Below, piece by piece: positions 1,178-53,006 of a stretch of 64,000 nt of DNA. The position numbers were made by a program, and so were the translations under genes. Each line of letters opens with the position of its first letter. Within the stretch, counting starts at the first letter, position 1. The notes under the pieces were generated by a model that was not told the DNA's origin, ran no database searches, and saw nothing but the letters and a program-made list of their open reading frames with translations. Source of the stretch: an uncultured Anaerolineales bacterium. Lineage in GTDB: Bacteria; Planctomycetota; Phycisphaerae; FEN-1346. The stretch is taken from NCBI GenBank assembly GCA_964461715.1, contig CAYWVR010000002.1:76453-140452 (forward strand), in the 5' to 3' direction.

Positions 1178-1767
1178 TGCTCCCCCCCAGCGGCCCCGCT
1201 CGGGTCGCCTTCCAGCTCGGGCAGCGATTCGCCGGCCTCCTTCAGGCGGAACCGGTCCGCCCGATCGATGATGCCGACCAGCTCGCCGCCGGTCACGTGC
1301 TTATATTCCGCCCCATTCGTCATAAGGTTCAGGTAGACGCACTCCCGGAGCGCATAGCGCGGCACAGGTCCGAAGAGGCGCATCCAGAGCCCGCCCCGGA
1401 TGCCGAGGGCGCGGCACAGGCAGGAGGCCAGGTGGCCCTTCTCGGTCGGGTCGTCCCCGGCCGCCGTCTCCAGCCACCCGCACGTGATGCCCCGGTCGCG
1501 GAGGTACTTCTTGTCGCCGACGAAGTCGCCGCCCGTCTCCGCCCCCTCGCTCACCAGGATCACCAGCGCCCGGGCCGTATCCGCCGCCGTCGCCGCGTCC
1601 TTGTACCCCAGCTCCGCGAAGAACTGGGCGTCGGACGCGACCTCGGCCTCGGCCGGGGCCGCGCGAGCCTCCTCGCCCTCCGCCCCCCACGCCGACCCGA
1701 CGGCCACCAGCACCGCCACCCGCACCGCCACCCGCATCGCCACCCGCATCGCCACCCGGACCTTCAT
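1174..1767 (-). CDS. secreted hypothetical protein
   Basis: Start chosen at MKVRVAMRVAMRVAVRVAVLVAVGSAWGAEG (signal peptide; residue 27 of the 223-aa track ORF). The C-terminal body is non-repetitive (…GITCGWLETAAGDDPTEKGHLASCLCRALG…). The signal-peptide region is encoded by a 12-bp tandem repeat. Confidence 0.5.
   Translation of the reverse strand: MKVRVAMRVAMRVAVRVAVLVAVGSAWGAEGEEARAAPAEAEVASDAQFFAELGYKDAATAADTARALVILVSEGAETGGDFVGDKKYLRDRGITCGWLETAAGDDPTEKGHLASCLCRALGIRGGLWMRLFGPVPRYALRECVYLNLMTNGAEYKHVTGGELVGIIDRADRFRLKEAGESLPELEGDPSGAAGGEQ
1711..1758. repeat. 4 x 12-bp tandem repeat (caccgccacccg / catcgccacccg) encoding the MRVAMRVAVRVAV stretch of a signal peptide on the minus strand
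   Basis: Read directly: caccgccacccg caccgccacccg catcgccacccg catcgccacccg. It is in frame, so copy-number change would lengthen or shorten the signal peptide h-region. Confidence 0.6.
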
Positions 1768-1876
1768 GCATCCCTCCCTTGCCCGCTTCGCGGGCGCACG
1801 GTCTCCCAGCCCCCCTATTCTAATCGACGATCGCCCCCCACGCAAGCCCGTGTTCCGCCCTCACTCCTTCCCTTCG

Positions 1877-2254
1877 TCATGCCTGCGCGACGTCGTCCGG
1901 GCCCCCCTGCTCGTCCCTCAAAGCGGCCATGGCTTCCTCAAGGGTCGCATAGAGATCAAAGAGGCGGTCCATGTGCGACACCTTGAGGACGCCGGCGACC
2001 TTGGAATGGAGGCGGGCGAAGGCGAGGCGCCCGCCGCGCACCGCGAAATGATGATGGACGCGGACCAGGGCCCCGAGGCCCCAGCTCGAGATATAGGTCA
2101 GTCCCTCGAGGTCCAGGAGCACCCGCCGGCGGCCCGTCTCCAGGAGCGCGTCCATCCGCTCGACGAACGGTCCGGTGTTCGTGTGATCGAGTCCCCCGTC
2201 GAGGGCCAGGTGGACGATGCCCCCCGGGCCGGGCGGACGCTCGTGAATCTGCAT
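1877..2254 (-). CDS. STAS-domain anti-sigma-factor antagonist (SpoIIAA-like)
   Basis: 125 aa. The segment …RVLLDLEGLTYISSWGLGALVRVHHHFAVRGGRLAFARLHSKVAGVLKVSHMDRLFDLYATLEEAMAAL matches the STAS/SpoIIAA fold signature (phosphorylatable Ser in the LTYISS context). Confidence 0.75.
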   Translation of the reverse strand: MQIHERPPGPGGIVHLALDGGLDHTNTGPFVERMDALLETGRRRVLLDLEGLTYISSWGLGALVRVHHHFAVRGGRLAFARLHSKVAGVLKVSHMDRLFDLYATLEEAMAALRDEQGGPDDVAQA

Positions 2255-2750
2255 GGCCGGGCTCCCGTTTCGGTGTGGCAGAGGCCATCGTAAGCGAGCC
2301 CGCGCCCCGGTTCAACGGCAAAGACGACGGCAGGGCCGCAGGACCGCGGACCTCCGACGGACGAAGGGACAGCCACGGCGACCGGCCAAGCCCACAACCT
2401 TTCGGCATGTCTCAGCGCACACCCCCTGCCTCGCGCGCCTCGCCGCCCCGCCGACCGCATCCATCCCCATGCGTTGATCCCAACGCGGCCCTGCGGTTCG
2501 CAGAGGTGCGGCGCGAACGTGCCCACGCCGAACCGCGTGGGCATGCCGCCCTGTTTTGCCTTTTGCGGCACCGATTTCGTTTTCCGCGTCACGCGGCACC
2601 CACGGGGCGGCCCGTTAGCGCGCAAGTTCGCGCAAGAAGGGGGGCAAAAGGTGCGAGTTGAGGTCGAGTTCCCCCCTCGTACCCCCCGAAAAGTTGCAGA
2701 AAGTGTGTCGCTTAGGGATACCCCGTGTGTCGATTTCCGCCAAATCGCCG

Positions 2751-2820
2751 CCCATCTTGCCTATCTTAACAGATTTGGAGCTGCGAAGGGGGGCTTCCCC
2801 CATTTTGCCTATCTTGACAC
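2751..2820. promoter_or_regulatory. pair of 19/20-identical direct repeats CAT(C/T)TTGCCTATCTT(A/G)ACA spaced ~50 bp, upstream of the fusA promoter
   Basis: Copy 1 is cccatcttgcctatcttaaca at 2751-2771 and copy 2 is cattttgcctatcttgacac at 2801-2820, in a locally AT-richer non-coding stretch. They look like paired operator or transcription-factor sites. Confidence 0.35.
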
Positions 2821-2932
2821 GCTTGATCGTCCCGGGCGGGGGCGGGGGGCACGCGTTCCGGACCTGCGGCACGGAGCGCGCGGTGGTCGGTCGGGGGCCT
2901 TGTGAAGAATGCGCATAAAGGTGGGCACACGC

Positions 2933-2960
2933 TTGACTTGGAGACCGAGGCGCGTATACT
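2933..2960 (+). promoter_or_regulatory. sigma70-type promoter (TTGACT - 16 bp - TATACT) for fusA
   Basis: TTGACT at 2933-2938, a 16-bp spacer, then TATACT at 2955-2960, about 140 bp upstream of the fusA ATG. It sits in a GC-poorer island. Confidence 0.55.
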
Positions 2961-3101
2961 GATAGGACTTTGACCCACCGCCACGGGCCCCCGTGCGGGG
3001 CCCTCCCCCGCAGGTTCGAGGAGCGGTCGGGGTGTCCGAGAGGCGCGCCCGCCGCTTCCTAAGGTGGGCTTGCCACACGAGTTACGCACGAGGACGGGAC
3101 G

Positions 3102-5189
3102 ATGACGAGTATCGGACGAATTCGAAATATCGGGATCAGCGCCCACATCGACTCGGGCAAAACCACCCTCAGCGAGCGGATGCTCTACTATGCCGGGCGA
3201 ATCCATCGCATGCAGGAGGTGCGCGGCGAGGGCGGCGGGGCGACCATGGATTACATGGACCTGGAGCGCGAGCGGGGGATCACCATCACCTCTGCAGCCA
3301 CTCAAATCGACTGGTCCGACCGCATATTCAATCTGATCGATACGCCCGGCCACGTCGACTTTACCGTCGAGGTGGAGCGGAGCCTGCGGGTCCTGGACGG
3401 GGCCGTGATGGTGCTCTGCGCGGTGGGGGGCGTGCAGAGCCAGTCGGTGACGGTGGACCGGCAGATGAAACGCTATCTTGTGCCTCGCTTGGCGTTCATC
3501 AACAAGATGGACCGCACGGGGGCCGACCCGGAGCGAGTGATCCAGGACCTGCAGGAGAAGCTCGGCCTGGCGGTGGCGCCCATCCAGATGCCCCTGGGCG
3601 TGGGCGAGGGTTTCCGCGGCGTCGTCGATCTGGTGACGATGGAGGCCGTGACGTTCGAGGGCCAAAGGGGCGAAAACGTGGTCCGAGGGGCCATTGCGGG
3701 CGATTTGGCGGATGAGGCCGAGGCGGCCCGCCACCACATGCTCGAAGCCCTGGCCATGCACGACGACGAGCTGATGGAGCTCCACCTCGAGGAGCAGCCC
3801 GTGCCGGAAGCCCTGGTGCGGCGGGTCCTTCGCGAAGCGACCGTCAACCGGGCCATTGTGCCCCTTCTCATGGGTTCGGCGTACAAGAACACGGGCGTTC
3901 AGCCGCTGATGGACGCCGTGGCGGAGTATTTGCCGAGTCCGCTGGATCGGACGAGTTTCGCCCGCGATCACGCCAACGAGGGCGCCGAAGTGCCTCTGGT
4001 GGCCGATCCGGACGCCCCGGCGGTGGCCATGGCCTTCAAGATCGTGGACGAATCGTTCGGGCAACTGAGCTACGCCCGGGTGTACCAGGGAACCTTGGCG
4101 AAGGGCGGTTCGTACCGCAACGCCCGGACGGGGGCCATGGTGCGGGTGGGTCGGATCGTGCGGATGCACGCCGACGACCGCGAGGACCTCGCCGAGGCGG
4201 GACCGGGCGACATCGTGGCCCTGGTGGGGGTCGAATGTGCCTCCGGCGATACGCTATGCGGCCCTGGAGTGAATTATTCACTGGAGAGCATCTTTGTGGC
4301 GAGCCCGGTGATCAGCTTTTCGATCACCCCCGCCTCCAACGACGATCAGGACCGCATGGCCAAGGCCCTGAACCGCTTCATGCGGGAGGACCCGACGTTC
4401 CGCGTCTCGACCGACCCGGAGACCGGCGAGACGGTCATCGCGGGCATGGGCGAACTGCACCTGGACGTGTACGTGGAGCGGATGCGGCGAGAATACCGGG
4501 CGTCGGTGCAAGTGGGGGCCCCCAGCGTCAGCTATCGCGAGGCCCCGACCACCGAATCGACGTTTGACCACCGTCACAAGAAGCAAACGGGCGGTTCGGG
4601 CCAGTTTGCCCACGTTCAGGGCCGCTTGGTGCCCCTTCCGGACGATGCCGAGGACCCCTACGAGTTCGAGGACAACATCCGCGGCGGGGCCATTCCGCGA
4701 GAGTTCATCCCCGCCGTCAGCAAGGGGTTCGCGGACGCCATGGCCGAAGGGCCGCTGGCGGGATACGAGATCGTCGGATGTAAGATGTGCCTCGACGACG
4801 GGTCGGCCCACGACGTGGATTCAAGCGAGATGGCCTTCCGGATTGCGGCCGTGGAGGCCTTCCGGCAGGCGTTCCGGGCCGCCAAACCGTGCCTCCAGGA
4901 GCCGATCATGGCCGTGGAGGTGGAATGTCCGCTGGAGGGCCAGGGCCCCGTCGTGGGCGACCTGAACAGCCGCCGGGGCATCATCCTGGCCACCGAGAAC
5001 CGCGGCGAGCACTGCGTCATCCGGGCCGAGGTACCCCTGGCGACGATGTTCGGCTACGCGACGGTCCTCCGGAGCCTCTCAAAGGGCATGGCGACCTTCT
5101 CGATGGAGATGGCACGGTACGCCCGCGTACCGGAGAAGATCGCCCGGGAAATCATCGCCCAGCGGCGGGCCGAGCGGGAGCGCGTGTAG
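3102..5189 (+). CDS. fusA: translation elongation factor G (EF-G)
   Basis: 695 aa. GTP-binding motifs are IGISAHIDSGKTT, DTPGHVDF and NKMD. There is full-length colinearity with EF-G (domains G', II, III, IV, V; …GAPSVSYREAP…HRHKKQTGGSGQFAHV…). Confidence 0.95.
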   Translation: MTSIGRIRNIGISAHIDSGKTTLSERMLYYAGRIHRMQEVRGEGGGATMDYMDLERERGITITSAATQIDWSDRIFNLIDTPGHVDFTVEVERSLRVLDGAVMVLCAVGGVQSQSVTVDRQMKRYLVPRLAFINKMDRTGADPERVIQDLQEKLGLAVAPIQMPLGVGEGFRGVVDLVTMEAVTFEGQRGENVVRGAIAGDLADEAEAARHHMLEALAMHDDELMELHLEEQPVPEALVRRVLREATVNRAIVPLLMGSAYKNTGVQPLMDAVAEYLPSPLDRTSFARDHANEGAEVPLVADPDAPAVAMAFKIVDESFGQLSYARVYQGTLAKGGSYRNARTGAMVRVGRIVRMHADDREDLAEAGPGDIVALVGVECASGDTLCGPGVNYSLESIFVASPVISFSITPASNDDQDRMAKALNRFMREDPTFRVSTDPETGETVIAGMGELHLDVYVERMRREYRASVQVGAPSVSYREAPTTESTFDHRHKKQTGGSGQFAHVQGRLVPLPDDAEDPYEFEDNIRGGAIPREFIPAVSKGFADAMAEGPLAGYEIVGCKMCLDDGSAHDVDSSEMAFRIAAVEAFRQAFRAAKPCLQEPIMAVEVECPLEGQGPVVGDLNSRRGIILATENRGEHCVIRAEVPLATMFGYATVLRSLSKGMATFSMEMARYARVPEKIAREIIAQRRAERERV

Positions 5190-9120: not shown

Positions 9121-10188
9121 CTAGAAGGTGACCGAGAGGGAGATGACGACCGTGTTCGACCGACCGAAATCCGGCTCCAGCTCCGGGAACATGTGGCTCT
9201 GGTAGGCCACGTCCAGCGAGAACCAGTCGCACGGATAGATGCCCAGCCCCGCCCCCCAGGCCGTGTTGCCGCGCCCGTCGATCGTCACGCCGCTCCGTAC
9301 GTAGAACCCGTCACAGAGCTGGTGGTCGACGCCCACCATGAACCGGTGGACCTGGAGGCGGCCCGTGTCGTCGTGGAACGAGCCGAACTGGTAATCCGCA
9401 TAGACGAGCGAATCGGGCAGGTATTCGTAGGACAGGCCGGGGCGCAATAGGTACTGGTGGCCCGTGTCCTTGATCCGGGCGCCCGTGCCCGGCCCGAAGA
9501 CGGGAAAGATCGTCGTCCGCGAGGGGCTGAAGGCGTAATCGAACACCACGCCGCCGAGGAGCTTGTCGCAGATGCGGCCCAGGACGCCGAATCGCCAGCC
9601 GTACGTCTCGCCGAGGGCGTCGGCGAAGTCGATGTGGCCGGGCAGGTCGAGCTCGGTGTTCGTGCGGGCATAGTTGAAGTTGGCGCCGAAGGCGAAATCC
9701 TCGTTGACGCGTCGGCCCCACTGGAGCTGGAAGACGTCAATGTCGAGGCGAAAATCGAGACCGTCGCGCCGTCTCCCGCGGGTCGAGCGGGCCTGGGCGA
9801 AGGCCGGCTGGAACGTGCCGTGGTCCGGCGTCTGCCACGTCATGGCCTCCGCGGCCACGTGGATGTCCGTGTCCTCGTGGAAGTGGAGACGGGCGTACTG
9901 CGGGCTGAAGGAGAGGTTCAAGTCGCCCGGAATGGGCGTCCAGGCGACGGCGGCCGGGTTGATGGACGAGGACCACTTGCTGCCCGCCGAGGCCCCGCCG
10001 GCCCCCGCCACGTCGCCGTAGGGCGAGAATCGGCTGAGGGCCGCCGGAAGCCGAAGCGACAGGTCCTTGTCGTCGAACCCGCCGGCCCGAGAGACGCCGG
10101 CCGTCAGCAGAACCGCGACCGCTCCTGCGGCCGACACGAGGGCCCGGCCGATCCAGACACGTCCGTTCATGGCACGCTCCTCCTGCAA
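9121..10188 (-). CDS. outer-membrane beta-barrel protein (putative porin)
   Basis: Signal peptide (…RALVSAAGAVAVLLTAGVSRAGG). The sequence shows alternating amphipathic beta-strand pattern rich in Tyr/Gly/Asp/Phe, and the last residue is Phe (…VISLSVTF), the beta-barrel assembly signature. Confidence 0.7.
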   Translation of the reverse strand: MQEERAMNGRVWIGRALVSAAGAVAVLLTAGVSRAGGFDDKDLSLRLPAALSRFSPYGDVAGAGGASAGSKWSSSINPAAVAWTPIPGDLNLSFSPQYARLHFHEDTDIHVAAEAMTWQTPDHGTFQPAFAQARSTRGRRRDGLDFRLDIDVFQLQWGRRVNEDFAFGANFNYARTNTELDLPGHIDFADALGETYGWRFGVLGRICDKLLGGVVFDYAFSPSRTTIFPVFGPGTGARIKDTGHQYLLRPGLSYEYLPDSLVYADYQFGSFHDDTGRLQVHRFMVGVDHQLCDGFYVRSGVTIDGRGNTAWGAGLGIYPCDWFSLDVAYQSHMFPELEPDFGRSNTVVISLSVTF

Positions 10189-10367: not shown

Positions 10368-11771
10368 GTGCCTTTGGACGGACTGCATCTTGCCCTGGGG
10401 GGCCTGCTGGGGGCGGCAACCGTCGTCGCGACGTGGGCGCTGACCGCCTGGGGCCGGGCCCGGGCCGACGCCCGCGACGCCCGCGACGCCCTCGCCCGCC
10501 GCGAGGACGACCTCGAGCAGACCCGCCGCCGGGCCCGCGCCTTGGCCGTCATGGCCAATAGCGCCAAGGCCATGCGCAACGAGTTCCTCTCCAACATCAG
10601 CCACGAGGTCCGAACCCCCATGAACACCGTCATGGGCATGACCGAGCTGGCCCTCGGGACCGAGCTCTCGGAGAAGCAGCGGCGGTACCTGGAGCGGGTC
10701 CGCGAGGCCGGGGCCTCGCTCCTGGGACTCCTGAACGATCTTCTGGACCTCTCGAAGATCCACGCGCGGCGGCTGCGCGTCGTGCCGCACGAGTTCCACC
10801 TCCGCGACTGCCTGGGCGACATCACGCAGCGGTACCGCGGGAGGGCCCGTCAGAAGGGCCTGACCCTCGTGACGGAGATCGCCGACGACGTGCCCGACGA
10901 GGTCATCGGCGACGCGGGTCGGCTGCGGCAAATGGTCGGGGCGCTGCTCTCGAACGCGGTCAAGTTCTCCGATGGGGGCACCGTCGAGCTCCGGGGCCGG
11001 CTCGTCTCCCGCGAGCGCCAGCGGGCGCTCGTGGAACTGGCCGTCCGCGACGAGGGCGTCGGCATCCCCCGGGCCCGGCAGGCCGCCATCTTCGAGGCCT
11101 TCAAGCAGGTCGACGGCAGCGAGACGCGCTCGGCGGGCGGCGTGGGCATCGGGCTGGCCATCGCCGCCGAGGTCGCCCAGATGATGGGAGGACGGATCGA
11201 CGTCGACAGCCACCCCGGGCGCGGCAGCACGTTCACGCTGACCATCCCCCTGGCCCTGCCGCCCGGCGTGGCCGAGGCCCTGGACGCGGTGCGTCCTTCG
11301 CTGGCGGGGCGGCGGGCCCTGGTCGTCAATGATCATTCCGAGATGCGCGAGGCCCTGGCCGACATGCTCGCCGCCGAGGGCGTCGACGTGCTCCAGGCCC
11401 CCAGCGGGGCGGCCCGGCGGCACCTGGCGGGGGCGGCCGCGGTGGACCGCCCCTTCGACGTCGTCCTCGTCGACGGTTCCGCCCCGCGGACCGACGCCCC
11501 GGCCCTGGCGGCCCAGTTGCTGGAGACCGGCTGGCTGGACGGGGCCCGGCTCATGGTCGTGACCTCCGCCGGCCACCGCGGAGACGCCGCCCGATGCCGC
11601 GATCTGGGCGTCGCAGCGTACCTGACGTTCCCGCTGAGCGCGGAGGACCTGGCGGAGGCCGTGGCCATGGCCCTTCAGGGCCCTGCGGAGGGCCATCCAC
11701 ACCTGATCACGAATCACGCGGCACGCGAGCGGCGCCAGGCGGCACGCCCGACATCCCCCGCCGGGGCCTGA
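10368..11771 (+). CDS. hybrid sensor histidine kinase / response regulator
   Basis: N-terminal TM helix. HisKA H-box FLSNISHEVRTPMN; HATPase N/G boxes (LLSNAVKFS… DEGVGIP… GGVGIGLAIA); C-terminal receiver domain (…RALVVNDHSEM…FDVVLVDGS…). Confidence 0.85.
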   Translation: MPLDGLHLALGGLLGAATVVATWALTAWGRARADARDARDALARREDDLEQTRRRARALAVMANSAKAMRNEFLSNISHEVRTPMNTVMGMTELALGTELSEKQRRYLERVREAGASLLGLLNDLLDLSKIHARRLRVVPHEFHLRDCLGDITQRYRGRARQKGLTLVTEIADDVPDEVIGDAGRLRQMVGALLSNAVKFSDGGTVELRGRLVSRERQRALVELAVRDEGVGIPRARQAAIFEAFKQVDGSETRSAGGVGIGLAIAAEVAQMMGGRIDVDSHPGRGSTFTLTIPLALPPGVAEALDAVRPSLAGRRALVVNDHSEMREALADMLAAEGVDVLQAPSGAARRHLAGAAAVDRPFDVVLVDGSAPRTDAPALAAQLLETGWLDGARLMVVTSAGHRGDAARCRDLGVAAYLTFPLSAEDLAEAVAMALQGPAEGHPHLITNHAARERRQAARPTSPAGA

Positions 11772-11804: not shown

Positions 11805-12731
11805 ATGGAGATCGTCAACGCCCACGTCCATCTCATCGAGCTGGACCGGATGATGGAACGGGGCCGGGGGTTCGCCCTGCCCTCGGGCATCGCCGTCTTC
11901 GAGGAATACCGCGAAAGCCTGCATCTGCTCTCGGAAGACGAGCTTCTGCGGCAGATGGACGAGGCGGGGATCGACCGCTCGATCCTCTTCGCCGTCGACG
12001 CCCCCATCGTCTACGCCTCGAACGAGTACGTTCACGCGGTCTGCCGGCGCCATCCCGACCGACTCCTGGGCTTCGCCTCCGTCCGGCCTCAGGCCCCCGA
12101 CGCGGTCGAGACGTTCGAGCGGGCGATCCAGGGCTTGGGGATGCGGGGCCTGAAGCTCCACCCCCCGCTCCAGGACTTCTACCCGAACGACGAGGCCGTT
12201 TATCCGCTCTACGAGAAGGCTGTGGCCCTGGACGTGCCCGTGGTGTTCCATGTGGGCACGACGCCGTTCGGCAGCCTCTGTCGCCTGGACCAGGCCAATC
12301 CGCTCCTGCTGGACGAGGTGGCGGTGGCATTTCCCGAGATGCGGATTCTGCTTACGCACCTCGGGACGCTGTGGCACCAGGTGGCCCTGATGGTCGTCGA
12401 AAAGAACCCGAACGTGTTTATCGACACGGCGGCGTACCTGTACGAGATCCGCGAGATCATGACGCCCGAGACGGTCGCTCGCGTCGGCGCGGACCGCTTC
12501 ATTTTCGGGACCGATTACCCGACGCCCTACGTCGGCCAGGTGCACCGCCTGGCGGACTTCGTCGACACCGTACGCGGGCTTCCCCTTCCCGCCGAAACGA
12601 TCGAGGCGATCCTCGGTCGCAACGTCGAGCTGCTCCTTAACGGCCGCCCCGACCGCGGACCGGGCATGAGCGCCGAGACCGTGATCGAGGAAGCCGCCCG
12701 TTACATCCGCCGCGAACCCGAAACGACGTAA
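11805..12731 (+). CDS. Amidohydrolase_2 family metal-dependent hydrolase/decarboxylase (TIM barrel)
   Basis: The start MEIVNAHVHL… (metal-binding HxH), followed by …LLGFASV…GLKLHP…VVFHVG…LLTHLG…FGTDYP, fits the Amidohydrolase_2 (ACMSD-like) architecture. Confidence 0.7.
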   Translation: MEIVNAHVHLIELDRMMERGRGFALPSGIAVFEEYRESLHLLSEDELLRQMDEAGIDRSILFAVDAPIVYASNEYVHAVCRRHPDRLLGFASVRPQAPDAVETFERAIQGLGMRGLKLHPPLQDFYPNDEAVYPLYEKAVALDVPVVFHVGTTPFGSLCRLDQANPLLLDEVAVAFPEMRILLTHLGTLWHQVALMVVEKNPNVFIDTAAYLYEIREIMTPETVARVGADRFIFGTDYPTPYVGQVHRLADFVDTVRGLPLPAETIEAILGRNVELLLNGRPDRGPGMSAETVIEEAARYIRREPETT

Positions 12732-12741
12732 GGACGGCCCC

Positions 12742-14139
12742 ATGATGCCGGCCGAGACGCCCGACCCGGAGACACAGGCCGCCAACGCCGTGGTGGCCGA
12801 GGGTGCCGAGCGATTCCTGGAGGCCTTCCGCCGGACGGTCCGCGAGGTCCCGGCCTACCGGGCCATCCTGGACGCCGAGAACCTAAACCCCGGCCAGGTC
12901 AGGGGGCCGGAGGACCTGACGCGGCTGCCCCTGCTGGACAAGCAACGGGTCTTCGGCGAACACCGGCTGGCGGACCTTTGCGTCGGGGGGACACTCGCCG
13001 ATGCCGCGCTGGTCTACTCGAGCAGCGGGCACTCCGGCACGTTCTCGTTCGGCGTCGAGAGCCGCGAGGATCTGGCACGCGGGGCGGCGGGTCTGGAAAT
13101 GCACCTCGACGCCCTCTTTGGAGCCCTGGAGAGGCCGACGCTCCTGGTCAACTGCCTTCCGATGGGCGTCCGCATCCCCACGCGGACGCTCCCGGTGGCC
13201 GAGACGAGCGTCCGGACCGACGCCATCGTTGCCGTCCTGAGGGCCTTGAGGCATGAGTTCGACCAGTTCATCCTCATCGGCGAGCACCTCCTCCAGAAGA
13301 AGGTCGTCGACGAGGGCGCCGACGCGGACCCGGGGTGGGAGGACCTGTGCGTCCACGTCGTGACGGGGGCGGAGTTCATCTCCGAGAGTTGGCGGGGGTA
13401 CATGGCGGCCCGGCTGGGCGTCGACGGCGCCGACCCGCGGCAGGGGATGGTCGGCATCAACATGGGCCTCTCGGAGCTCTCGGTCAGCATCTTCCGCGAT
13501 ACGCCGCGACTGGCCCGCCTGCGCCGCCGCGCCGACGAAGACCCGGACCTACGCCGCGAGATCTTCGGATCGGAGGCCCGCGTCACGCCCGAGATCCTCC
13601 AGTACGACCCCCGCCACACGTGGCTCGAAACGGTCCCGGACAAGGCGGGGCGGCCGGAGCTGGTCGTCTCGACCCTGGACCCCGAGCGCACGTTGCCGCT
13701 GCTTCGGTACCGGACGGGCGATCACGTAGCCCTGCGGCCCTACGCGGACCTGCGGGAGATCCTGGAGCGGACGGGCAACGCCGACCTTCTCCCGCCGCAC
13801 CCCCTGCCCGTGGGGCTTATCTATGGGCGGAACCCCGGCCTCGATCTGCCCGGCGGGGGGCGGGTGACCGTCGCGGACGTCAAGGACGTCCTCTATCGCG
13901 ACCATGAGGCCGCGCGCGACTGGACCGGCCTCTTCCACCTGACGCCTGCCGAGGACGGCATGGGGGCAGTCGAGATCGAGGCCCGCGAGGGCCATCCGCC
14001 GTCGGCGCGCGCAGCCGAAGCCCTCGAAGACCGTCTGGCGGCCTTGGTCGGGGAGCGCGTGCCCGTCGCCGTTCGGCCCTACGGCCGGTTCCAGTACGGC
14101 TGGGGCTTCAATTACGAAAGAAAGCCGTCGTACGTCTGA
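12742..14139 (+). CDS. PaaK/CapK-like adenylate-forming enzyme (phenylacetate-CoA ligase / F390-synthetase family)
   Basis: The N-terminal …AYRAILD…GPEDLTRLPLLDKQ… is a PaaK-type N-domain, and the C-terminal adenylation hinge motif RYRTGD is present. Length is 465 aa. Confidence 0.75.
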   Translation: MMPAETPDPETQAANAVVAEGAERFLEAFRRTVREVPAYRAILDAENLNPGQVRGPEDLTRLPLLDKQRVFGEHRLADLCVGGTLADAALVYSSSGHSGTFSFGVESREDLARGAAGLEMHLDALFGALERPTLLVNCLPMGVRIPTRTLPVAETSVRTDAIVAVLRALRHEFDQFILIGEHLLQKKVVDEGADADPGWEDLCVHVVTGAEFISESWRGYMAARLGVDGADPRQGMVGINMGLSELSVSIFRDTPRLARLRRRADEDPDLRREIFGSEARVTPEILQYDPRHTWLETVPDKAGRPELVVSTLDPERTLPLLRYRTGDHVALRPYADLREILERTGNADLLPPHPLPVGLIYGRNPGLDLPGGGRVTVADVKDVLYRDHEAARDWTGLFHLTPAEDGMGAVEIEAREGHPPSARAAEALEDRLAALVGERVPVAVRPYGRFQYGWGFNYERKPSYV

Positions 14140-14165
14140 AGCACACTTCGCTGGGAGGTTGAGCC

Positions 14166-14999
14166 ATGGCCGACGTGCAAGCGAGCTGGGACCCGGCCTA
14201 CGCCGGGATGGTCGAGCGCAACATCGGGCTTCTCAAGCCCGAGGAACAGGAACGCCTGCGGACGGCCCGCTGTGCGGTGTTCGGGACGGGAGGGCTCGGA
14301 GGGGTGGCCTTCGAGGTCCTCGTACGGAGCGGAGTGGGCCACTTCAACATCGTCGACAAGGACGCCTTCGACGCCTCCAACCTGAACCGCCAGATCCACG
14401 CCACTCGCAAGACGATCGGCCACGTCAAGGTCCAGGCCGCCCGCGAGCGAGCCCTCGAGATCAACCCCACCGTCGAGGTCGCCACCTGGGAGCGCGTCGA
14501 CGGGGAGACCGTCCGGGAGATCCTCCGCGGGGCCGACGTCGCCGTCCAGGCCATCGATACGCTGCGGGCGTCGCTCGTCCTGTCGCGGGCGGCCCGCGAG
14601 ATGGGCGTCCCGTTCGTCGAGGGATGGGCCATCCCCTTCCCGAATTGCCGCACCTTCACCGCCGAGACGCCGAGCCTCGAGGAAGCCTACGGTCTGCCGA
14701 CGGCGGATCGGGCCGTCTCGGACATCCCGGACGAGGAGATCCGGAAGCTCCAGACGAACCTCCTGTTCGGACTCGGGCAGATCGAAGGGGTGGGGGACTT
14801 CTACGATCAGGCCACGATCGACCGGATCGCCGCGGGACACCTCTCCTCGTTCGCCCCCATGGTCTGGGGCACGGCCGTGATGGTGGCCACCGAGGCCCTG
14901 AAGGTGCTGCTCGGCTGGGGTACGCTCGCCCTCGCTCCGCGCTTCGCGGTCTACGACCCGTACGAGCACCGGATGCCCGGGATCCTGCCCGCTCCTTAG
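14166..14999 (+). CDS. ThiF/MoeB/HesA-family E1-like nucleotidyltransferase (TcdA/CsdL-like small form)
   Basis: Rossmann GxGxxG (VFGTGGLGGVAFEVL) followed by IVDKDAFDASNLNRQIHA… No C-terminal CxxC zinc motif or rhodanese domain. From memory it resembles the TcdA subgroup. Confidence 0.7.
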   Translation: MADVQASWDPAYAGMVERNIGLLKPEEQERLRTARCAVFGTGGLGGVAFEVLVRSGVGHFNIVDKDAFDASNLNRQIHATRKTIGHVKVQAARERALEINPTVEVATWERVDGETVREILRGADVAVQAIDTLRASLVLSRAAREMGVPFVEGWAIPFPNCRTFTAETPSLEEAYGLPTADRAVSDIPDEEIRKLQTNLLFGLGQIEGVGDFYDQATIDRIAAGHLSSFAPMVWGTAVMVATEALKVLLGWGTLALAPRFAVYDPYEHRMPGILPAP

Positions 15000-15013: not shown

Positions 15014-15895
15014 CTAGGCGGGCGAGATCTCGGTGGTATCGCCTCGGCAGACGGCCCGGAAGAGCGTCCCGCCCCATCGTTCCCGCAGCGCCGTCCGCTC
15101 GCGGTCCGTGAGCCGCGCGAGCAAGTCCAGGCGACCCGCCACCAGCTCTCGCAGGCGCATCGGGTCGCCGAAGGTGCGGCGGTTCATGATCTGCCAGAAA
15201 CGGGCGTAATCGACGTAGGGGTTGGCCTCCAGGAGCCACGAGACCAGGAACGCGCGCCGACCGAGCCGCCGATCGGCCTCGCGAGCCCGGTCGGCCAGGC
15301 AGGAGAGGCTGAGGCGCCGTCCCGTGGGCCGGTCGCCCCACGGCTCGAAAAGGACCACGGCGTCGAAGACCGTCCCGCCGCAGCCGCAGAAGAGGTCGTC
15401 GGCCCCGCCCGCAGCGGCGACGGCCGCGGCCGCCCGCGCCAGCTCCGCCCAGACGGGGAAGGCCGCATCAGGGGCCGCGCATCCGACCATCTCGGCCGCC
15501 TGCCGGCCCATGGAACGCAGGCACGCGAGAGCCCGGCCGAAGGGAGCGTCGCCCGGAAGACCGAACGTCACCGAGTCCCGCACCACGGCCAGGGCGGCGA
15601 CGGGCCGGTCGCCGATCTCGGCCATGAGGACGGCCGTCTCCTCCTGTGCCATGCGCACCGCCGACAGCGGGACGCCGCCGACCGTCTCCCAGCCCTTCGG
15701 GGGCGCGAGCAACAGCCGTCCCGCCGACGTCAGGTCCTCGGGGGTCACGGCCCGCCTGACGCGGAACCGTGTCGTGTCGTCTCCGCTAAGCCACGCGCGC
15801 CCGATCCTCGGGCTGCGTGCCAGATGTTCCATGCCGATCGGGATCATCGGAGGCCTCCATCGGTCCTTAGGCCGTCGGCGGCGATTCCGCGGCAC
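15014..15895 (-). CDS. FeeM/LuxI-like GNAT-fold N-acyltransferase paralogue A (full length; possible real start at MEHL, 15832)
   Basis: Shares the N-terminal block (…TRFRVRRAVTPEDL…AALAVV…) and the C-terminal ~50-aa block (…DPMRLRELVAGRLDLLARLTDRERTALRERWGGTLFRAV…) with paralogues B and C. The track start is GTG. Confidence 0.55.
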   Translation of the reverse strand: MPRNRRRRPKDRWRPPMIPIGMEHLARSPRIGRAWLSGDDTTRFRVRRAVTPEDLTSAGRLLLAPPKGWETVGGVPLSAVRMAQEETAVLMAEIGDRPVAALAVVRDSVTFGLPGDAPFGRALACLRSMGRQAAEMVGCAAPDAAFPVWAELARAAAAVAAAGGADDLFCGCGGTVFDAVVLFEPWGDRPTGRRLSLSCLADRAREADRRLGRRAFLVSWLLEANPYVDYARFWQIMNRRTFGDPMRLRELVAGRLDLLARLTDRERTALRERWGGTLFRAVCRGDTTEISPA

Positions 15896-16232
15896 ACATC
15901 ACTTGCGCGAACGTCGCGGGACCCCAGAAGGCCCGCAGCCAGTCGCGCTCTTGGCTCGTGGCACGGCCCAGGAGGCCGCTTTGCTCGATGAAGAGGCGCG
16001 CGAGAGCCCTCGGATCGTCGAAGAGATCGCCCGCCCGTTCGTTCCATTCGGCCACGGCAATGAAGGTGGCCATGTCGGGCGAGGCCTCGTCGACGCCAAG
16101 GACGGCCGCGCCCGCGGTCGTCTCGGCCACCAGATGGTGGGCCTCGCTCAGCTCATCGACGGTGAGGGCCCGGCGGATGGTTGTGCCGCGGGTGTCGGCA
16201 CCGAAGAGGCCGAGGCGCGTCAGGAGGGCCAT
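15867..16232 (-). CDS. FeeM/LuxI-like N-acyltransferase paralogue B: internally deleted mini-copy (~122 aa from MALLTRLGLF…), keeping only the N-terminal and C-terminal blocks
   Basis: MALLTRLGLFGADTRGTTIRRALTVDEL…MATFIAVAEW joins directly to …LFDDPRALARLFIEQSGLL…ERDWLRAFWGPATFAQV. The catalytic GNAT core present in paralogue C is missing. Possible longer starts exist at 16316 or 16472. Confidence 0.4.
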   Translation of the reverse strand: MALLTRLGLFGADTRGTTIRRALTVDELSEAHHLVAETTAGAAVLGVDEASPDMATFIAVAEWNERAGDLFDDPRALARLFIEQSGLLGRATSQERDWLRAFWGPATFAQVMCAAESPPTA

Positions 16233-16473
16233 CCGCCGCTCGACGCCTCCGGCGCGCGGCCGGCGCCGCGCGCGGCGGGACCGGGCGAGGTCCCGCTCCA
16301 GGGCCAGAAGGTCCATCCAGGAGGGTCGGGCGACGGACTGTGGGGGACGGGCCGCGGGAGAAAAGCCGGAGGGCGCCTGCCCTCGCGGGTCGGTCCCCAG
16401 CGGTCCCATCCGAATCCCCACGTCCTGTCCTTTCGGCGGTTGCGAGCGCGGCGGGCGGCGGGCCGAAGGCATC

Positions 16474-17382
16474 CTAGCACACCGGCACGGCCTGGCCCAC
16501 GTCCCCGGTCACGGCGGCAAAGGTCGCGTCACCCCAGGCCCCGCGGATGGCCTCGCGCTCGGGGCGCGTGCATCCGGGGATCAGGCCGCTGTCCTCGACG
16601 AAGAGCCGCCGGAGGGCCGACTGGTCGTCGAACAGCGTCCGGGCCTCGGCGTCCCACGCCTTGACCTGCTTGCGGTAGGGGTTGCTGACGAGGCAGCGAA
16701 TCTTGATGAAGAGGGTCGCGCTGTCGCTGTCGTCGTTGGCCTGCTCGGCCCGGGCGATCAACTCGGCGACGTTGACCCGCATCACGACCACCGGATCGTC
16801 GGTCTTGCGGGAGTAGCTGCGCACGTCGCTGACCTGCGTGAAGCCCAGGAGGTTGAAGAACCGGGCGTGGCCGGGGCTGACGGTAGTGATGAGTTCGTCG
16901 CATCCGACGGCCAGGCCGTGGGCGAACATGCACCGCATCAGCTCCGTGGGCACGGCGCTCTTGCGGTACTCGGGGGCAATGGCCTGGTTGGTGGCCTCGC
17001 AGACCCGCCGCCTGCCGACCCGAAGCTCGTCCAGCACGTCCTGGAACGCGTCGTCCGAGGGCAGCCCGAGATGCGGCCCGTCGACGGCCAGTCCCTGGAC
17101 GCCCACGACCTTTCCGTCGGCCACAGCGATGAAGGTGGCCATGGACGGCAGGGCCTCGAAGGGACGCATGCGGAGTCCGGTCGCCGTCGGCTGGATGTAG
17201 CCCTGCTCGGCGAACGCGTCGTGGACGAGCCGATAGCCCTGGATAAGGTCATCGTCGGTGACGGCTCGGCGGATGACGGCGCCGCGGGTGTCAGACCCGA
17301 ACAGACCGGCCCGCCTCAGCAGCGCCATCCGGCGCGAGGCCCGGGCCGATTCCGCGTCCCCCCTCCCCTTGTGGACCTTCAT
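16474..17382 (-). CDS. FeeM/LuxI-like GNAT-fold N-acyltransferase paralogue C (N-acyl amino acid synthase-like)
   Basis: Core …YRLVHDAFAEQGY…MATFIAVADGKVVGVQGLAV…RVCEATNQAIAPEYRKSAVPTELMRCMFAHGLAVGCDELITTVSPGHARFFNLLGF… matches the autoinducer-synthase/FeeM acyltransferase fold. A strong SD (AGGAGGGAG) lies 6 nt before the ATG at 17382. Confidence 0.6.
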   Translation of the reverse strand: MKVHKGRGDAESARASRRMALLRRAGLFGSDTRGAVIRRAVTDDDLIQGYRLVHDAFAEQGYIQPTATGLRMRPFEALPSMATFIAVADGKVVGVQGLAVDGPHLGLPSDDAFQDVLDELRVGRRRVCEATNQAIAPEYRKSAVPTELMRCMFAHGLAVGCDELITTVSPGHARFFNLLGFTQVSDVRSYSRKTDDPVVVMRVNVAELIARAEQANDDSDSATLFIKIRCLVSNPYRKQVKAWDAEARTLFDDQSALRRLFVEDSGLIPGCTRPEREAIRGAWGDATFAAVTGDVGQAVPVC

Positions 17383-18346
17383 AGCTTCTCCCTCCTACAG
17401 ATGACGAACGCCTTTCCCCTTGTTCCCATCCTGCCTACTTCCCCAGTTTGCCCCAATTTACCACCCTGTCAAATTTCACACCGGATGCGTAAACCAGAGA
17501 TGCGACGGAAGATCGTAAAACGTTTTTTGACAAGGACTTACAGAGAGATGTGACGCGGGGCCGCTTTTTCGGCCGGCACCGTCGGCTGCGCAACACCGTC
17601 GATTTTCGCCGGGTTTCTTCGCCCAGAGGCATCGCATCTGTCCGGGAAGTCGACCTCCGAAAGTGCTTCGGAAGGCCCGACTTCTCCGCCCCAGACCTGC
17701 CGCCGACCCGCTCGGCGTGAAGCGAGTCCGGCCGCCGTGCCGCTCACCCCCGACGTCGGGGGCGAACGCGTAGCCGCATGGGGGCGAAGATCAGCGGACA
17801 GAGAGACCCGGCTTGCGCCGAATCCTTGAGGGAGGGAAATGCTGTCAGTCTGGTCGTCTTGCGGTAGCGCCCAATCCAGCCGTTGTCCTTCTGCTATCCG
17901 CCTCGACGAGTGGAGTATGGCACGGAGCCGTGCTCTATCAGAAAGATTCCCCTCTTCCCGGTCCCCTCTATCCCCGCTACAGCCCTGCACCTACGTCACG
18001 GCCCGCCCGACCGGGCATCGGTTCAGGTCGTCACTCACGTCTGATAACTGCGATCCGCATGCCAACTCCCGGCAGAATTCCGATCTGTTTGATCCGGCCG
18101 TAAGCGCTTGTCTAAAAAGCACTTAGAACAAGAGTCCACGGTTTCGGGCCGTTCCCCCGGAGGCCGACCCGCCGCCGACCGTTGCCCCAGAGCAACGAAC
18201 TCGCTCGCGAAAGCGTTCTTCTTGGGACGTTAACCCTTGCGAACAAAGGACTTAAGGCCCGTTCCTCCGCATGCAACATGAGTTTCAACGCCGCAACAGA
18301 GAGGGCCGTGAACGCGAGGCACCCGCGATCCGGAGGGCCTGGAACG

Positions 18347-29675: not shown

Positions 29676-29752
29676 AGGCGGGTAGCTCAGTTGGCAGAGC
29701 GCCCGGAATACACCCGGGAGGTCGCGTGGTTCGAATCCCGCCCCGCCTACCA
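29676..29752 (+). tRNA. tRNA-like gene, anticodon TAC (Val) with encoded CCA; non-canonical features (A32/A33 in the anticodon loop, 1-nt bulge in the T-stem)
   Basis: Hand fold: acceptor AGGCGGG/CCCGCCT (7/7 pairs); D-arm GCTC-AGTTGGCA-GAGC; anticodon stem CCCGG/CCGGG with loop AATACAC; variable loop AGGTC; T-arm GCG(T)GG-TTCGAAT-CCCGC; discriminator A then CCA. The canonical GGTTCGAATCC and TAGCTCAGTTGG boxes are present. Confidence 0.6.
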
Positions 29753-29780
29753 GTCTGGACGCCTCGAGTGGACGGCCCGC

Positions 29781-51983: not shown

Positions 51984-52984
51984 AGCCGGGCCTCTTCCTC
52001 ACGTTCGACGTCGAGTGCAGCATGGGCGGCGCGTTCGAGGACCCGTCGGCGCTGCCGGTGCCGCCGGCGCGGGCCGTGTGGGGCGAGTACGGCGGCCGGT
52101 CGCTGGGTCTGGGGCGGATTCTGGAGGTCCTCGGCCGACACAGCCTCAAAGGCACGTTCTTCGTCGAGCCGTTCATGGAGGAGCAGGGCTATCCCGGCGA
52201 GGGCAAGCGGATCACGGACGCCCTCGCCGAGGCCGGCCAGGACGTCGAGCTCCACATCCACCCGTGCCACAGCTTCTACGCGAAGCACCTGCGGGGCGAG
52301 CCGTACCCGCCAACCGACACGATGGCCGACCTGGGGCCCCGGATGCAGACGGCGCTTTTTGCCGAGGGCGCCGACCGCCTGGCCTCCTGGACCGGTCGGC
52401 GCCCGGTGGCGTTCCGGGCCGGCAACATGGGGGCGTCGGAGGCGACGCTCGAAGCCCTGGCCGCGGCGGACCTCGCGCTCGATTCGAGCTACACGTTTCC
52501 CTACGCGGGGGGCCAGTGCCGCTTCCCGCCCGGCGATCCGTACAACGGTTCGCGGCGGTACGGCGAGGTGGTGGAGCTCGCGCTCTCGGGCTTCACGCAG
52601 CCACGTTTCCCGGGCCTGCACCCGGCGAAACCGCTGGACCTGGCGGGCGTCTCGTTCGCGGAGATGCGCGAGGCGACGCTTCGAATCATCGAGGCCGGGG
52701 CCGACGCGGTGATGATCCTTCATCCGTTCAGCCTCCTGAAGGTCCGGAACCTGGCGTATGATGGAGGCCGGCCGGACCGGGTCGTCGTCCGGCGGTTCGA
52801 GCGATTTTGCCGCTGGCTCGACGAGGTGAGGGACACCGTCGGCGCGCGGACGTTCGCGGACGTGGCGACGGCGCTCGCCGACGGACGCGATGAGCCGCGC
52901 GAGGCGCCGCCGCCGCGGCTGGGCCTTGGGCGGGCGCTCATGCGAAAGGCCGTCCAGGCCTGGAACCGGCCGCATTGGACGTGA
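51980..52984 (+). CDS. polysaccharide deacetylase family protein (NodB-like, PEP-CTERM-locus subfamily type)
   Basis: GTG overlapping the upstream stop. LFLTFDVE…SLKGTFFVEP… (NodB motifs 1 and 2: TFDD-like, H-x-x-H region …ELHIHPCH…) and …AFRAGNMG… are present. 334 aa. Confidence 0.7.
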   Translation: MKPGLFLTFDVECSMGGAFEDPSALPVPPARAVWGEYGGRSLGLGRILEVLGRHSLKGTFFVEPFMEEQGYPGEGKRITDALAEAGQDVELHIHPCHSFYAKHLRGEPYPPTDTMADLGPRMQTALFAEGADRLASWTGRRPVAFRAGNMGASEATLEALAAADLALDSSYTFPYAGGQCRFPPGDPYNGSRRYGEVVELALSGFTQPRFPGLHPAKPLDLAGVSFAEMREATLRIIEAGADAVMILHPFSLLKVRNLAYDGGRPDRVVVRRFERFCRWLDEVRDTVGARTFADVATALADGRDEPREAPPPRLGLGRALMRKAVQAWNRPHWT

Positions 52985-53006
52985 GACTCGCGAGTGGGAG
53001 CCGACG

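Follow-up and report, generated by a model that had tools for sequence, protein, structure and literature searches.

A module of Amidohydro_2, PaaK-like and ThiF-like genes beside N-acyl amino acid synthase genes: a proposed lipoamino acid tailoring cassette in an exosortase locus

Are the three adjoining plus-strand genes of this locus, which encode a metal-dependent amidohydrolase, a divergent PaaK-like enzyme and a ThiF-like (E1-like) enzyme, linked to ACYLTRANSFERASES? This is the question posed here for a stretch of 64,000 nucleotides from an uncultured bacterium (contig CAYWVR010000002.1 of assembly GCA_964461715.1), which was analysed at its full length and is called the window below; the three genes are called the trio (Table 1). 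The reading that we prefer, at a probability of roughly 0.6, is that the trio is a tailoring cassette acting on the products of the adjacent FeeM-type synthases, which are N-acyl amino acids (lipoamino acids), and that it operates within an exopolysaccharide (EPS) locus of the PEP-CTERM/exosortase type. For two of the three trio enzymes the chemistry is inferred only. An earlier note on this DNA (the original prediction) had proposed that the trio activates and tailors the substrate of the neighbouring acyltransferases or, alternatively, that the E1-like gene is an unrelated tRNA-modifying TcdA. The link between the trio and the FeeM genes has held, through synteny across phyla and through gene fusions, but the direction is probably wrong for the E1-like enzyme, whose relatives act on the product.

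Association of the trio with FeeM-type synthase genes

The window has a G+C content of about 70% and raw lists of open reading frames (ORFs) are therefore noisy. A filter on codon-position GC kept, on the plus strand, exactly the three trio ORFs, with gene-typical third-position values (GC3) of 0.88-0.91, and a GAAGGAG ribosome-binding site precedes the ATG of the first. Coordinates, GC3 and ribosome-binding site all agree with the three tightly spaced genes originally predicted, separated by gaps of 10 bp and then 26 bp. The stop codon of the third lies 14 bp from that of the convergent gene FeeM_a, so that the trio does abut the FeeM-like genes as had been claimed, although the supposed triplet proves to be two full-length genes and one internally deleted copy. 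A scan for promoters and terminators between 10.1 and 18.4 kb found sites no commoner than in shuffled sequence.

Relatives of the PaaK-like gene are present in 198 species genomes, as judged from a scan of species-representative genomes, and are spread over the Desulfobacterota, Planctomycetota, Verrucomicrobiota, Pseudomonadota, Omnitrophota, Armatimonadota and even the Methanosarcinales. Eighty of these 198 loci were fetched and the sample reached through the PaaK-like gene came to 85 (loci are numbered L001 and upwards below); ORFs were called in all fetched loci and searched iteratively with hidden Markov models (HMMs) for FeeM, ThiF and amidohydrolase partners. Searches by tblastn with single FeeM sequences were too insensitive, and the iterative FeeM model, which grew from 34 to 92 ORFs and whose matches were validated with Pfam, was used instead. 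Our own ThiF model took up the lyase domain of two fusion proteins and so gave artefactual matches on lyase genes, and the ThiF calls for each locus were cross-checked by tblastn.

A FeeM-like gene was found in 50 of the 57 non-redundant loci that have at least 3 kb on each side of the PaaK-like gene, at a distance of 1.5 kb or less in 45 of the 57 and of 300 bp or less in 33. Of 68 such FeeM-like neighbours, 61 were confirmed as FeeM by Pfam. In six genomes, from Thiocapsa, Undibacterium, Dechloromonas, Sulfuritalea and Desulfobacter, the FeeM neighbour is a member of TIGR03694 (150-209 bits against a cut-off of 112). Because FeeM adjoins the PaaK-like gene in most loci across phyla, we regard the two as a core pair that has been conserved. 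To this pair some loci add the amidohydrolase and the ThiF-like gene; both are present in 13 of the 85 PaaK-sampled loci, mostly within one clade of the PaaK-like tree (a neighbour-joining tree without support values).

The complete trio is also present in three independently reached loci, one found via ThiF (L089, Bacteroidales) and two via the amidohydrolase (L092, Ca. Scalindua japonica, and L093), and altogether at least 16 loci besides the window have it, in most cases together with FeeM, PEP-CTERM proteins, exporters or an exosortase. The check on neighbourhood conservation that had been called for thus came out in favour of the module. Among the 13 trio loci sampled through the PaaK-like gene, nine have a FeeM gene beside the trio, as do both L092 and L093. 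Gene order varies: amidohydrolase, PaaK-like, ThiF in the window; ThiF, amidohydrolase, PaaK-like in L089; PaaK-like, amidohydrolase, ThiF, lyase in L092; the amidohydrolase convergent with ThiF and PaaK-like in L093; and a ThiF::lyase fusion divergent from amidohydrolase and PaaK-like in L017 and L020. The association of the three genes persists through these rearrangements, which argues for functional coupling. Because cultured carriers exist, the question can be put to a direct test: the full trio is present in Desulfobacter curvatus DSM 3379, while only the FeeM and PaaK-like pair is present in Thiocapsa roseopersicina DSM 217 and in Undibacterium pigrum DSM 19792.

Additional enzymes accompany the module in some genomes. 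The lyase fused to ThiF in L017 (6456-8639, minus strand) and L020 (4994-7171, minus strand), both from Verrucomicrobia, is a pyridoxal phosphate (PLP) enzyme resembling tryptophanase and tyrosine phenol-lyase, and a separate PLP lyase directly follows ThiF in a Planctomycetaceae metagenome-assembled genome (L062, 12397-13731, plus strand) and in L092 (9810-11156, plus strand). Such an enzyme is a hint that the chemistry involves aromatic amino acids. The literature search turned up no ThiF::beta-eliminating-lyase fusion. Probes for the tryptophanase-like lyase and for a methyltransferase, taken from other loci, match nothing in the window. Two Planctomycetia proteins of about 915 residues (L019, 3474-6239, minus strand; L035, 3076-5823, minus strand) combine FeeM, AMP-binding and PP-binding domains and by their domain content appear to be self-contained enzymes for fatty-acid activation, carriage and N-acylation near a PaaK-like gene.

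The trio enzymes, the synthases and their known relatives

The ThiF-like protein is a single-domain protein (Pfam ThiF, E 9.8e-43) with no rhodanese domain and only two Cys residues (C36 and C161). The structural zinc site of MoeB and ThiF consists of two CxxC pairs in the C-terminal half; the window's protein has no CxxC and thus no zinc motif, as the original prediction had correctly stated. The best full-length NCBIfam models are the uncharacterised PRK08223 (138 bits), PRK14851 (105) and PRK14852 (80). Scores against the characterised families fall far below their cut-offs: 64.1 bits for the TcdA equivalog PRK15116 (cut-off 304; residues 30-151 only), 106 for MoeB PRK08762 (cut-off 449) and 102 for ThiF TIGR02356 (cut-off 275). 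MoeB, TcdA and ThiF chains in the PDB match about equally well, at E values near 1e-14, and align over residues of approximately 26-159 only, the match to TcdA structures being confined to residues 32-152. A model of the protein (predicted local distance difference test, pLDDT, 95) places the bacterial E1-like enzymes about equal in Foldseek, with TcdA lower (query TM-score, TMq, 0.61-0.65) than MoeB, ThiF and PaaA. The suggestion that this is a TcdA-type ct6A dehydratase unrelated to its neighbours has therefore been dropped, the resemblance being limited to the Rossmann half; firm clustering with TcdA together with an operon conserved away from any acyltransferase, which would have refuted the original prediction, was not what was found. 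Membership of 14166-14999 in the TcdA, MoeB or ThiF families is ruled out by the HMM cut-offs, the coverage, the missing zinc motif and the context.

The protein nevertheless shares the Rossmann-type adenylation fold and the catalytic residues of TcdA/CsdL, MoeB, ThiF, MccB and PaaA. G40/G42/G45, N74, R75, K88 and D131 are invariant in 39 members of its clade, and R75, K88 and D131 align with R73, K86 and D130 of MoeB. It differs from these classical enzymes in its C-terminal half, in lacking the zinc site and in its genomic context, and it has no ubiquitin-like or peptide partner gene nearby: the small GG-terminated ThiS/MoaD-like ORF that had been suggested as a check is absent, in conserved form, from the window between 5 and 26 kb and from 13 trio loci. 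Homologues fall into a clade with at least 86% coverage down to about 35% identity, defined by a specific C-terminal half, and, beyond it, generic ThiF, TcdA and MoeB proteins that match over the N-terminal Rossmann half only. Some databases label clade members TcdA or MoeB.

Domain fusions among the relatives point to chemistry on small molecules. A profile search of 1.84 billion representatives returned 1,595 proteins at E<=1e-30, and the nearest 149 representatives include at least 18 fusions of ThiF with an Acg-type nitroreductase or flavin oxidase (FDO), in either order. Pfam-confirmed fusions also join FeeM to ThiF (P0260), PilZ to FeeM and ThiF (P0325), and ThiF to a PlsC acyltransferase (P0190), and two ThiF::methyltransferase fusions were detected with our own probe. 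The PilZ::FeeM::ThiF protein carries a domain arrangement suggesting control by cyclic di-GMP (c-di-GMP). The Acg-type flavin oxidase beside a clade member in L091 aligns with PRK14851 (positions 325-605) and with the Rv1355c family (positions 372-652), which identifies PRK14851 as a ThiF::FDO family of the kind seen in TrzS and OxzB. In the same way PRK14852 can be read as FeeM::ThiF(::FDO), because FeeM_c and the ThiF-like protein match separate segments of it (24-216 and 315-560, respectively). More distant clade members lie in FeeM-methyltransferase-ThiF and FDO-ThiF clusters, one of the former (L090) containing a clade member with 36% identity to the window's protein. Two further fusions, with a RoxA-like cytochrome c and with a GT1 glycosyltransferase (P0202 and P0255), were also seen, and the unusual architectures suggest, as far as domain content can indicate, a wider range of chemistry on ThiF-activated lipoamino acids.

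These arrangements correspond to those of three characterised pathways, OxzA/OxzB of Pseudoalteromonas rubra, TyzA/TyzB/TyzC, and TrzA/TrzS of Mycobacterium tuberculosis, in which a synthase of the FeeM fold makes an N-acyl aromatic amino acid, with acyl-coenzyme A (acyl-CoA) as the donor for TyzA, TrzA and OxzA, and in which the ThiF-like enzyme or domain of OxzB (A0A5S3UR53), TyzB (P95234) or TrzS (Rv1355c) uses ATP to cyclise the N-acyl amino acid to an oxazolone (PMC10404671, PMC12856293, PMC12596934). A flavin oxidase, a nitroreductase-type desaturase, is described as the constant partner of these cyclases. Mutation of a conserved Asp abolishes cyclisation, as in TrzS D217A, D217 being the equivalent of MoeB D130 (PMC12856293). 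Oxazolones themselves are broken down by acid and by alcohols (PMC12856293). The window resembles these systems in that its ThiF-like gene adjoins FeeM and keeps the adenylation residues including the Asp, and in the ThiF::FDO and FeeM::ThiF fusions among its nearest relatives. It differs in having Amidohydro_2 and PaaK-like genes instead of a flavin oxidase, with the PLP beta-lyase added in some genomes. Its setting differs too, being an exosortase/EPS locus of Gram-negative environmental phyla where that of Tyz and Trz is mycobacterial lipid metabolism. Comparison with TyzB, TrzS and OxzB was made via family models, fusion architectures and context. Since the fusion and cluster architectures of its relatives are those of the characterised oxazolone systems, we place the ThiF-like enzyme after FeeM, and most probably it is an ATP-dependent N-acyl amino acid cyclase acting on the FeeM product.

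A second set of relatives is found in the N-acyl-dehydrotyrosine clusters of Stieleria (Planctomycetota; stieleriacine), Thalassotalea and Massilia, which comprise NasY, ThiF and a nitroreductase (PMC7293339, PMC12479983). The stieleriacine region has several synthase genes, a gene annotated as ThiF or 'TcdA', a PEP-CTERM protein and adjoining EPS genes, and the role of ThiF in such clusters has been termed 'enigmatic' (PMC7293339, PMC12479983). Multiple synthase genes, a ThiF gene, PEP-CTERM proteins and EPS genes are likewise present in the window; in contrast, the known clusters of this kind include a methyltransferase as well as the nitroreductase, and neither an amidohydrolase nor a PaaK-like gene has been reported from them. 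A 2025 structure of a ThiF-like protein 'in complex with substrate', AclA of Tenacibaculum discolor (PDB 9egb/9egc), is one of the best matches to the window's protein in both sequence (E 7e-11) and fold (TMq 0.69-0.71); no paper describing the function of AclA was found in the literature search.

The PaaK-like protein is far more divergent. It matches no Pfam family even at E<=10, the AMP-binding model included, and its matches to NCBIfam PaaK models are weak and partial (TIGR02155, 31 bits against a cut-off of 646; NF041878, 37 bits against 700); by sequence, PaaK chains in the PDB are matched at E 1.5e-4. The AlphaFold model (pLDDT 89) finds PaaK1 (2y27) as the best structure in Foldseek, with E 7e-20 and TMq 0.70-0.71 over approximately 480 columns, followed by BT_0428, NatL2 (TMq 0.67), 2-hydroxyisobutyryl-CoA ligase and ClxA (TMq 0.59-0.61). 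The PaaK label given to this gene at the outset is thus correct at the level of the fold, the modelled structure being a two-domain PaaK fold. S94-S95-G96, R322-Y323-(T325)-D327 and K461 vary little or not at all among 31 homologues, and on our reading they correspond to the Ser/Gly-rich P-loop, the YxTGD motif and the C-terminal catalytic Lys of ANL enzymes, the last having a described catalytic role in PaaK-family ligases (PMC7204872). Homologues form only 65 clusters among 5.8 billion proteins, and one of these clusters (P0048) is a natural FeeM::PaaK-like fusion with the synthase domain first. The window has a second, more canonical gene resembling PaaK and F390 synthetase, at 52890-54386 (plus strand) in the glycosyltransferase part of the EPS locus; its scores of 125 bits for the DVU_1553 family and 114 for PaaK are all under cut-offs, and it is unrelated to the family of the trio.

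The amidohydrolase is the most conserved member of the trio, with more than 120 homologue clusters at 54-75% identity. Its match to Pfam Amidohydro_2 is clear (PF04909; E 2.5e-39, 136 bits against a gathering threshold of 26.4), and H7, H9, K117, H149, H185 and D237 are invariant in 14 trio orthologues, the metal ligands being kept as the HxH pair (H7 and H9), H149, H185 and D237, in line with the metal-dependent TIM-barrel enzyme that was first supposed. The closest solved relatives are BB4693 (an uncharacterised Bordetella protein), LigW, LigJ and ACMSD. Sixteen of 17 other loci with the amidohydrolase also have PaaK-like and ThiF-like genes, the exception being L013, which is without ThiF. 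The amidohydrolase goes with ThiF and not with FeeM: it is missing from the large majority of FeeM and PaaK-like loci, and it is strictly co-inherited with the trio-type ThiF.

The pairing of a PaaK-fold ligase with an enzyme of the amidohydrolase superfamily is also seen in the NatL2/NatAM and ClxA benzoxazole systems. NatL2 shows that PaaK-family members can skip the thioester step, for its product is an unstable ester and not a CoA thioester, and the NatAM amidohydrolase carries out cyclodehydration (PMC7204872). The substrates there are aminohydroxybenzoates, not lipoamino acids, and the window's amidohydrolase has no detectable sequence relation to NatAM; since homology was not found, NatL2/NatAM is kept here as an analogy only.

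As for the synthases, FeeM_a and FeeM_c share 30% identity over their full length. FeeM_b aligns only to residues 17-89 and 240-291 of FeeM_c and so lacks the catalytic core of about 150 residues; its GC3 of 0.84 is of coding type. The gene is a duplicate in decay or else encodes an accessory protein without catalytic function. N-acyl amino acid synthases were reportedly linked to exosortase loci by Craig, Cherry and Brady in 2011. The window is like the exosortase-associated TIGR03694 acyltransferase systems in having PEP-CTERM proteins, XrtA-type EPS genes and an exosortase, and unlike them in that none of its three FeeM-like proteins matches TIGR03694; proteins of the window's type resemble the N-terminal segment of PRK14852 instead. 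No mention of a dedicated PaaK-like, amidohydrolase or ThiF partner of exosortase-linked synthases was found in the searchable literature.

Proposed pathway and competing explanations

In the pathway that we favour, FeeM_a and FeeM_c would N-acylate an amino acid, probably an aromatic one, from acyl-acyl carrier protein or acyl-CoA, as expected from their family. The ThiF-like enzyme would then adenylate the free alpha-carboxylate with ATP, and the amide oxygen would close the ring to give a 2-alkyl-oxazol-5(4H)-one, a step for which homology, fusions and context speak and for which TyzB, TrzS and OxzB are precedents. The amidohydrolase would take the place of the flavin desaturase and, as we infer, process the reactive ring or an activated intermediate, either by hydrolytic opening, by decarboxylation-type chemistry or by cyclodehydration. 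The PaaK-like enzyme could be a second ATP-dependent carboxylate activator specific to exosortase-linked synthases. We slightly favour a position after the synthase, where it would ligate the N-acyl amino acid to CoA or another acceptor, because FeeM precedes the PaaK-like domain in the natural fusion as it precedes ThiF and FDO, and in FeeM::ThiF(::FDO) proteins the order of domains matches the order of reactions. It is nearly as likely that the PaaK-like enzyme works ahead of the synthase and provides it with an unusual acyl donor. A simple role as fatty-acyl activator is not expected, because L019 and L035 keep the PaaK-like gene despite having FeeM fused to AMP-binding and PP-binding domains. 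The product would probably be exported to the envelope or matrix.

Several observations weigh against this pathway. Sampling was mostly seeded with the PaaK-like gene, and its ubiquity in trio loci is partly by construction. About one third of trio loci are without a FeeM gene within 8-10 kb; with relaxed thresholds, none was found within this distance in the amidohydrolase loci L006, L010, L011, L013, L017 and L089. The Acg/FDO probe matches nothing in the 64-kb window and no flavin oxidase or nitroreductase was seen in the trio loci, and the ThiF-like protein scores only 52 bits against the Rv1355c (TrzS) family model, with its cut-off of 476. The nearest solved relatives of the amidohydrolase are decarboxylases and hydratases of aromatic acids, not lactone or oxazolone hydrolases, and a profile of 14 trio amidohydrolases matches no NatAM chain in the PDB at E<=1. 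Two carboxylate activators would also seem redundant if they shared one carboxylate as their target, and this speaks for placing the PaaK-like enzyme upstream.

This last point leads to a quite possible, if doubtful, alternative that stays close to the original prediction. Here the donor, an acyl-CoA or acyl-adenylate with perhaps an aryl-acetyl or other unusual acyl group, would come from the PaaK-like enzyme; the amidohydrolase, as an enzyme of decarboxylase type, and the PLP lyase of other loci would prepare the acid or amino-acid substrate, FeeM would couple the two and only the ThiF-like enzyme would act afterwards. Such a pathway would be linear, with no redundant activation, and it agrees both with the habit of the PaaK family, which typically yields CoA thioesters of small aromatic or branched acids and whose members PaaK1, BT_0428 and 2-hydroxyisobutyryl-CoA ligase are matched in fold, and with the acyl-CoA donors of TyzA, TrzA and OxzA; the lyases in L062, L092, L017 and L020 act on free amino acids and would therefore work before N-acylation. 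It is less easily reconciled with L019 and L035, where a FeeM already fused to fatty-acyl-AMP-ligase-like and carrier domains still has its PaaK-like neighbour, with the leading position of the synthase in the FeeM::PaaK-like fusion, and with an amidohydrolase whose presence goes with that of ThiF and not of FeeM.

Two other explanations bring in the exosortase surroundings. It is conceivable, though we think it unlikely, that the PaaK-like and ThiF-like enzymes make an activated N-acyl amino acid, in the form of an adenylate, CoA thioester or oxazolone, for transfer onto EPS or onto the substrates of the exosortase, with the amidohydrolase in a ring-processing or proof-reading role; were this so, the exosortase-associated synthases would be the source of a lipid anchor or modifier for PEP-CTERM sorting. 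Still harder to credit is that the trio acts on PEP-CTERM proteins or EPS themselves, the ThiF-like or PaaK-like enzyme adenylating an exosortase-made C-terminus or a uronic-acid carboxylate to which an N-acyl amino acid is then attached. E1-like enzymes classically adenylate protein C-termini, PEP-CTERM proteins lie beside the module in the window, L001, L007 and L093, with EpsH/EpsI also in L093, the PilZ::FeeM::ThiF fusion ties the chemistry to control of c-di-GMP and biofilm, and disruption of an exosortase-type synthase in Methylomonas LW13 led to loss of a polysaccharide band (PMC11072679). However, no PEP-CTERM or EPS genes are present in the fetched flanks of L006, L089 and L092, the FeeM::ThiF and ThiF::FDO fusions and the biochemistry of the relatives point to small-molecule substrates, and the trio proteins are predicted to be of cytoplasmic type while exosortase cleavage is thought to be sited at the membrane. 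That the E1-like gene is a housekeeping TcdA, or a MoeB/ThiF-type activator of a sulfur carrier, next to the module by chance, is extremely improbable in spite of its Pfam domain, its PDB matches and some database labels, given the sub-threshold and partial matches, the lower TM-scores of TcdA, the missing zinc motif, the lack of a small GG-terminated partner in the window between 5 and 26 kb and in 13 trio loci, the tight synteny with the amidohydrolase and PaaK-like gene despite changes of order, and the FeeM::ThiF fusions.

Returning to the tailoring cassette, part of what it implies is already known, namely the oxazolone chemistry of synthases with ThiF-like cyclases, discovered between 2021 and 2025, and the link between synthases and exosortases, made in 2011. 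The PaaK-fold family as a near-universal partner of exosortase-linked synthases, and the desaturase-free cassette of amidohydrolase, PaaK-like and ThiF-like genes with its associated PLP lyase, were not found in the searchable literature and appear to be new. The near-constant presence of the PaaK-like gene with these synthases implies a dedicated ATP-dependent activation of the lipoamino acid or of its acyl donor. An amidohydrolase and a ThiF-like enzyme without a desaturase would predict a different oxazolone chemistry, with possible outcomes including saturated oxazolones and racemised, decarboxylated or ligation products. The analysis also corrects the routine mis-annotation of trio-type genes as MoeB, TcdA or phenylacetate-CoA ligase.

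The exosortase locus and the flanking genes

Table 1 Genes of the trio and of its surroundings, with their positions in the 64,000-nucleotide window
Feature	Position	Strand	Evidence or remark
Amidohydro_2 metal-dependent TIM-barrel enzyme, 308 aa (trio gene 1)	11805-12731	+	Pfam PF04909
Divergent PaaK-family adenylate-forming enzyme, 465 aa (trio gene 2)	12742-14139	+	Fold and motifs
ThiF-like E1-fold adenylating enzyme, 277 aa (trio gene 3)	14166-14999	+	Pfam ThiF
FeeM_a, divergent N-acyl amino acid synthase	15014-15895	-	Pfam FeeM, E 9.4e-7; full length
FeeM_b, internally deleted FeeM-like copy	15867-16472	-	Partial alignment to FeeM_c; no Pfam match
FeeM_c, N-acyl amino acid synthase	16474-17382	-	Pfam FeeM, E 3e-36; full length
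Short-chain dehydrogenase/reductase (SDR)	18347-19234	-	adh_short, E 1.4e-53
PEP-CTERM protein	19368-20591	-	PEP-CTERM matches
PEP-CTERM protein with C39-like peptidase domain	20588-21496	-	PEP-CTERM matches
PEP-CTERM protein	21559-22320	-	PEP-CTERM matches
Exosortase EpsH fused to EpsI-family domain	57873-59549	+	phmmer against the L093 homologue: EpsH E 2.4e-45, EpsI 8.5e-13
Hybrid histidine kinase/response regulator	10368-11771	+	HisKA, HATPase_c and Response_reg; 33 bp 5' of the trio
Outer-membrane beta-barrel-like protein	9121-10188	-	Weak PorV/PorQ and OMP_myx_plus matches

The trio and the FeeM genes lie in an EPS locus of the PEP-CTERM/exosortase type, a wider setting that had been missed in the original prediction. 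Tails of the VPEP, transmembrane and Arg-rich type can be read in two of the three PEP-CTERM proteins. These genes, downstream of the FeeM side, are followed by a polyprenyl glycosylphosphotransferase, and the plus-strand EPS genes encode XrtA-type export and chain-length proteins, an AAA_22 ATPase, a tyrosine-kinase-like ATPase, a FemAB-like protein, a Wzx flippase, stp2/stp3-like glycosyltransferases and an O-antigen-ligase-like protein; the matches in the window to pepcterm_export, pepcterm_ChnLen and the stp2/stp3 glycosyltransferase models are all under their equivalog cut-offs. The exosortase, assigned through one Pfam-annotated homologue (in L093) and not through a curated model, is about 43 kb downstream of the trio in the same EPS supercluster. 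The locus with the closest synteny (L041) comes from Phycisphaerae, as do the named homologues that match best, and a planctomycetal origin of the window is therefore likely.

Elsewhere, PEP-CTERM proteins and MMPL or ABC/FtsX exporters are recurrent neighbours of the module. The FeeM/trio cluster of Desulfobacter (L001) also contains a pair of penicillin-amidase genes (1719-4139, minus strand), which belong to the Ntn-hydrolases and resemble acylases of N-acyl-homoserine lactones, together with an MMPL transporter, and these may serve to break down or recycle the N-acyl product and to export it. The tyz genes of M. tuberculosis neighbour mmpL9 (PMC10404671).

The hybrid kinase and the outer-membrane protein flank the trio, and both recur beside PaaK-like or FeeM genes in other phyla. 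A homologue of the kinase adjoins the PaaK-like gene in L041 (55% identity) and in L004, and a kinase with the same domain composition adjoins the trio in L089. The gene is a possible regulator of the trio or may be co-transcribed with it. Homologues of the outer-membrane protein, with 43-62% identity, were found in L017, L056, L066, L070, L074 and L080. On the other side, the SDR is kept at the same position in the syntenic locus L041 (59% identity) and is a possible tailoring enzyme. Between it and FeeM_c is a gene-free gap of 965 bp (17383-18346), with low-GC3 ORFs only and no promoter-like site, which may be the promoter or regulatory region of the FeeM operon.

An Rfam scan of the whole window gave one tRNA only and nothing in this gap. 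The tRNA, tRNA-Val(TAC) at 29676-29752 (plus strand), is located within the EPS operon and covers the initial 60 bases of an ORF for a GT4 glycosyltransferase (29691-31028), the true start of which must therefore be further downstream. ARAGORN also reported an odd 93-nucleotide 'tRNA-???' at 37452-37544, within the flippase gene, which is probably spurious.

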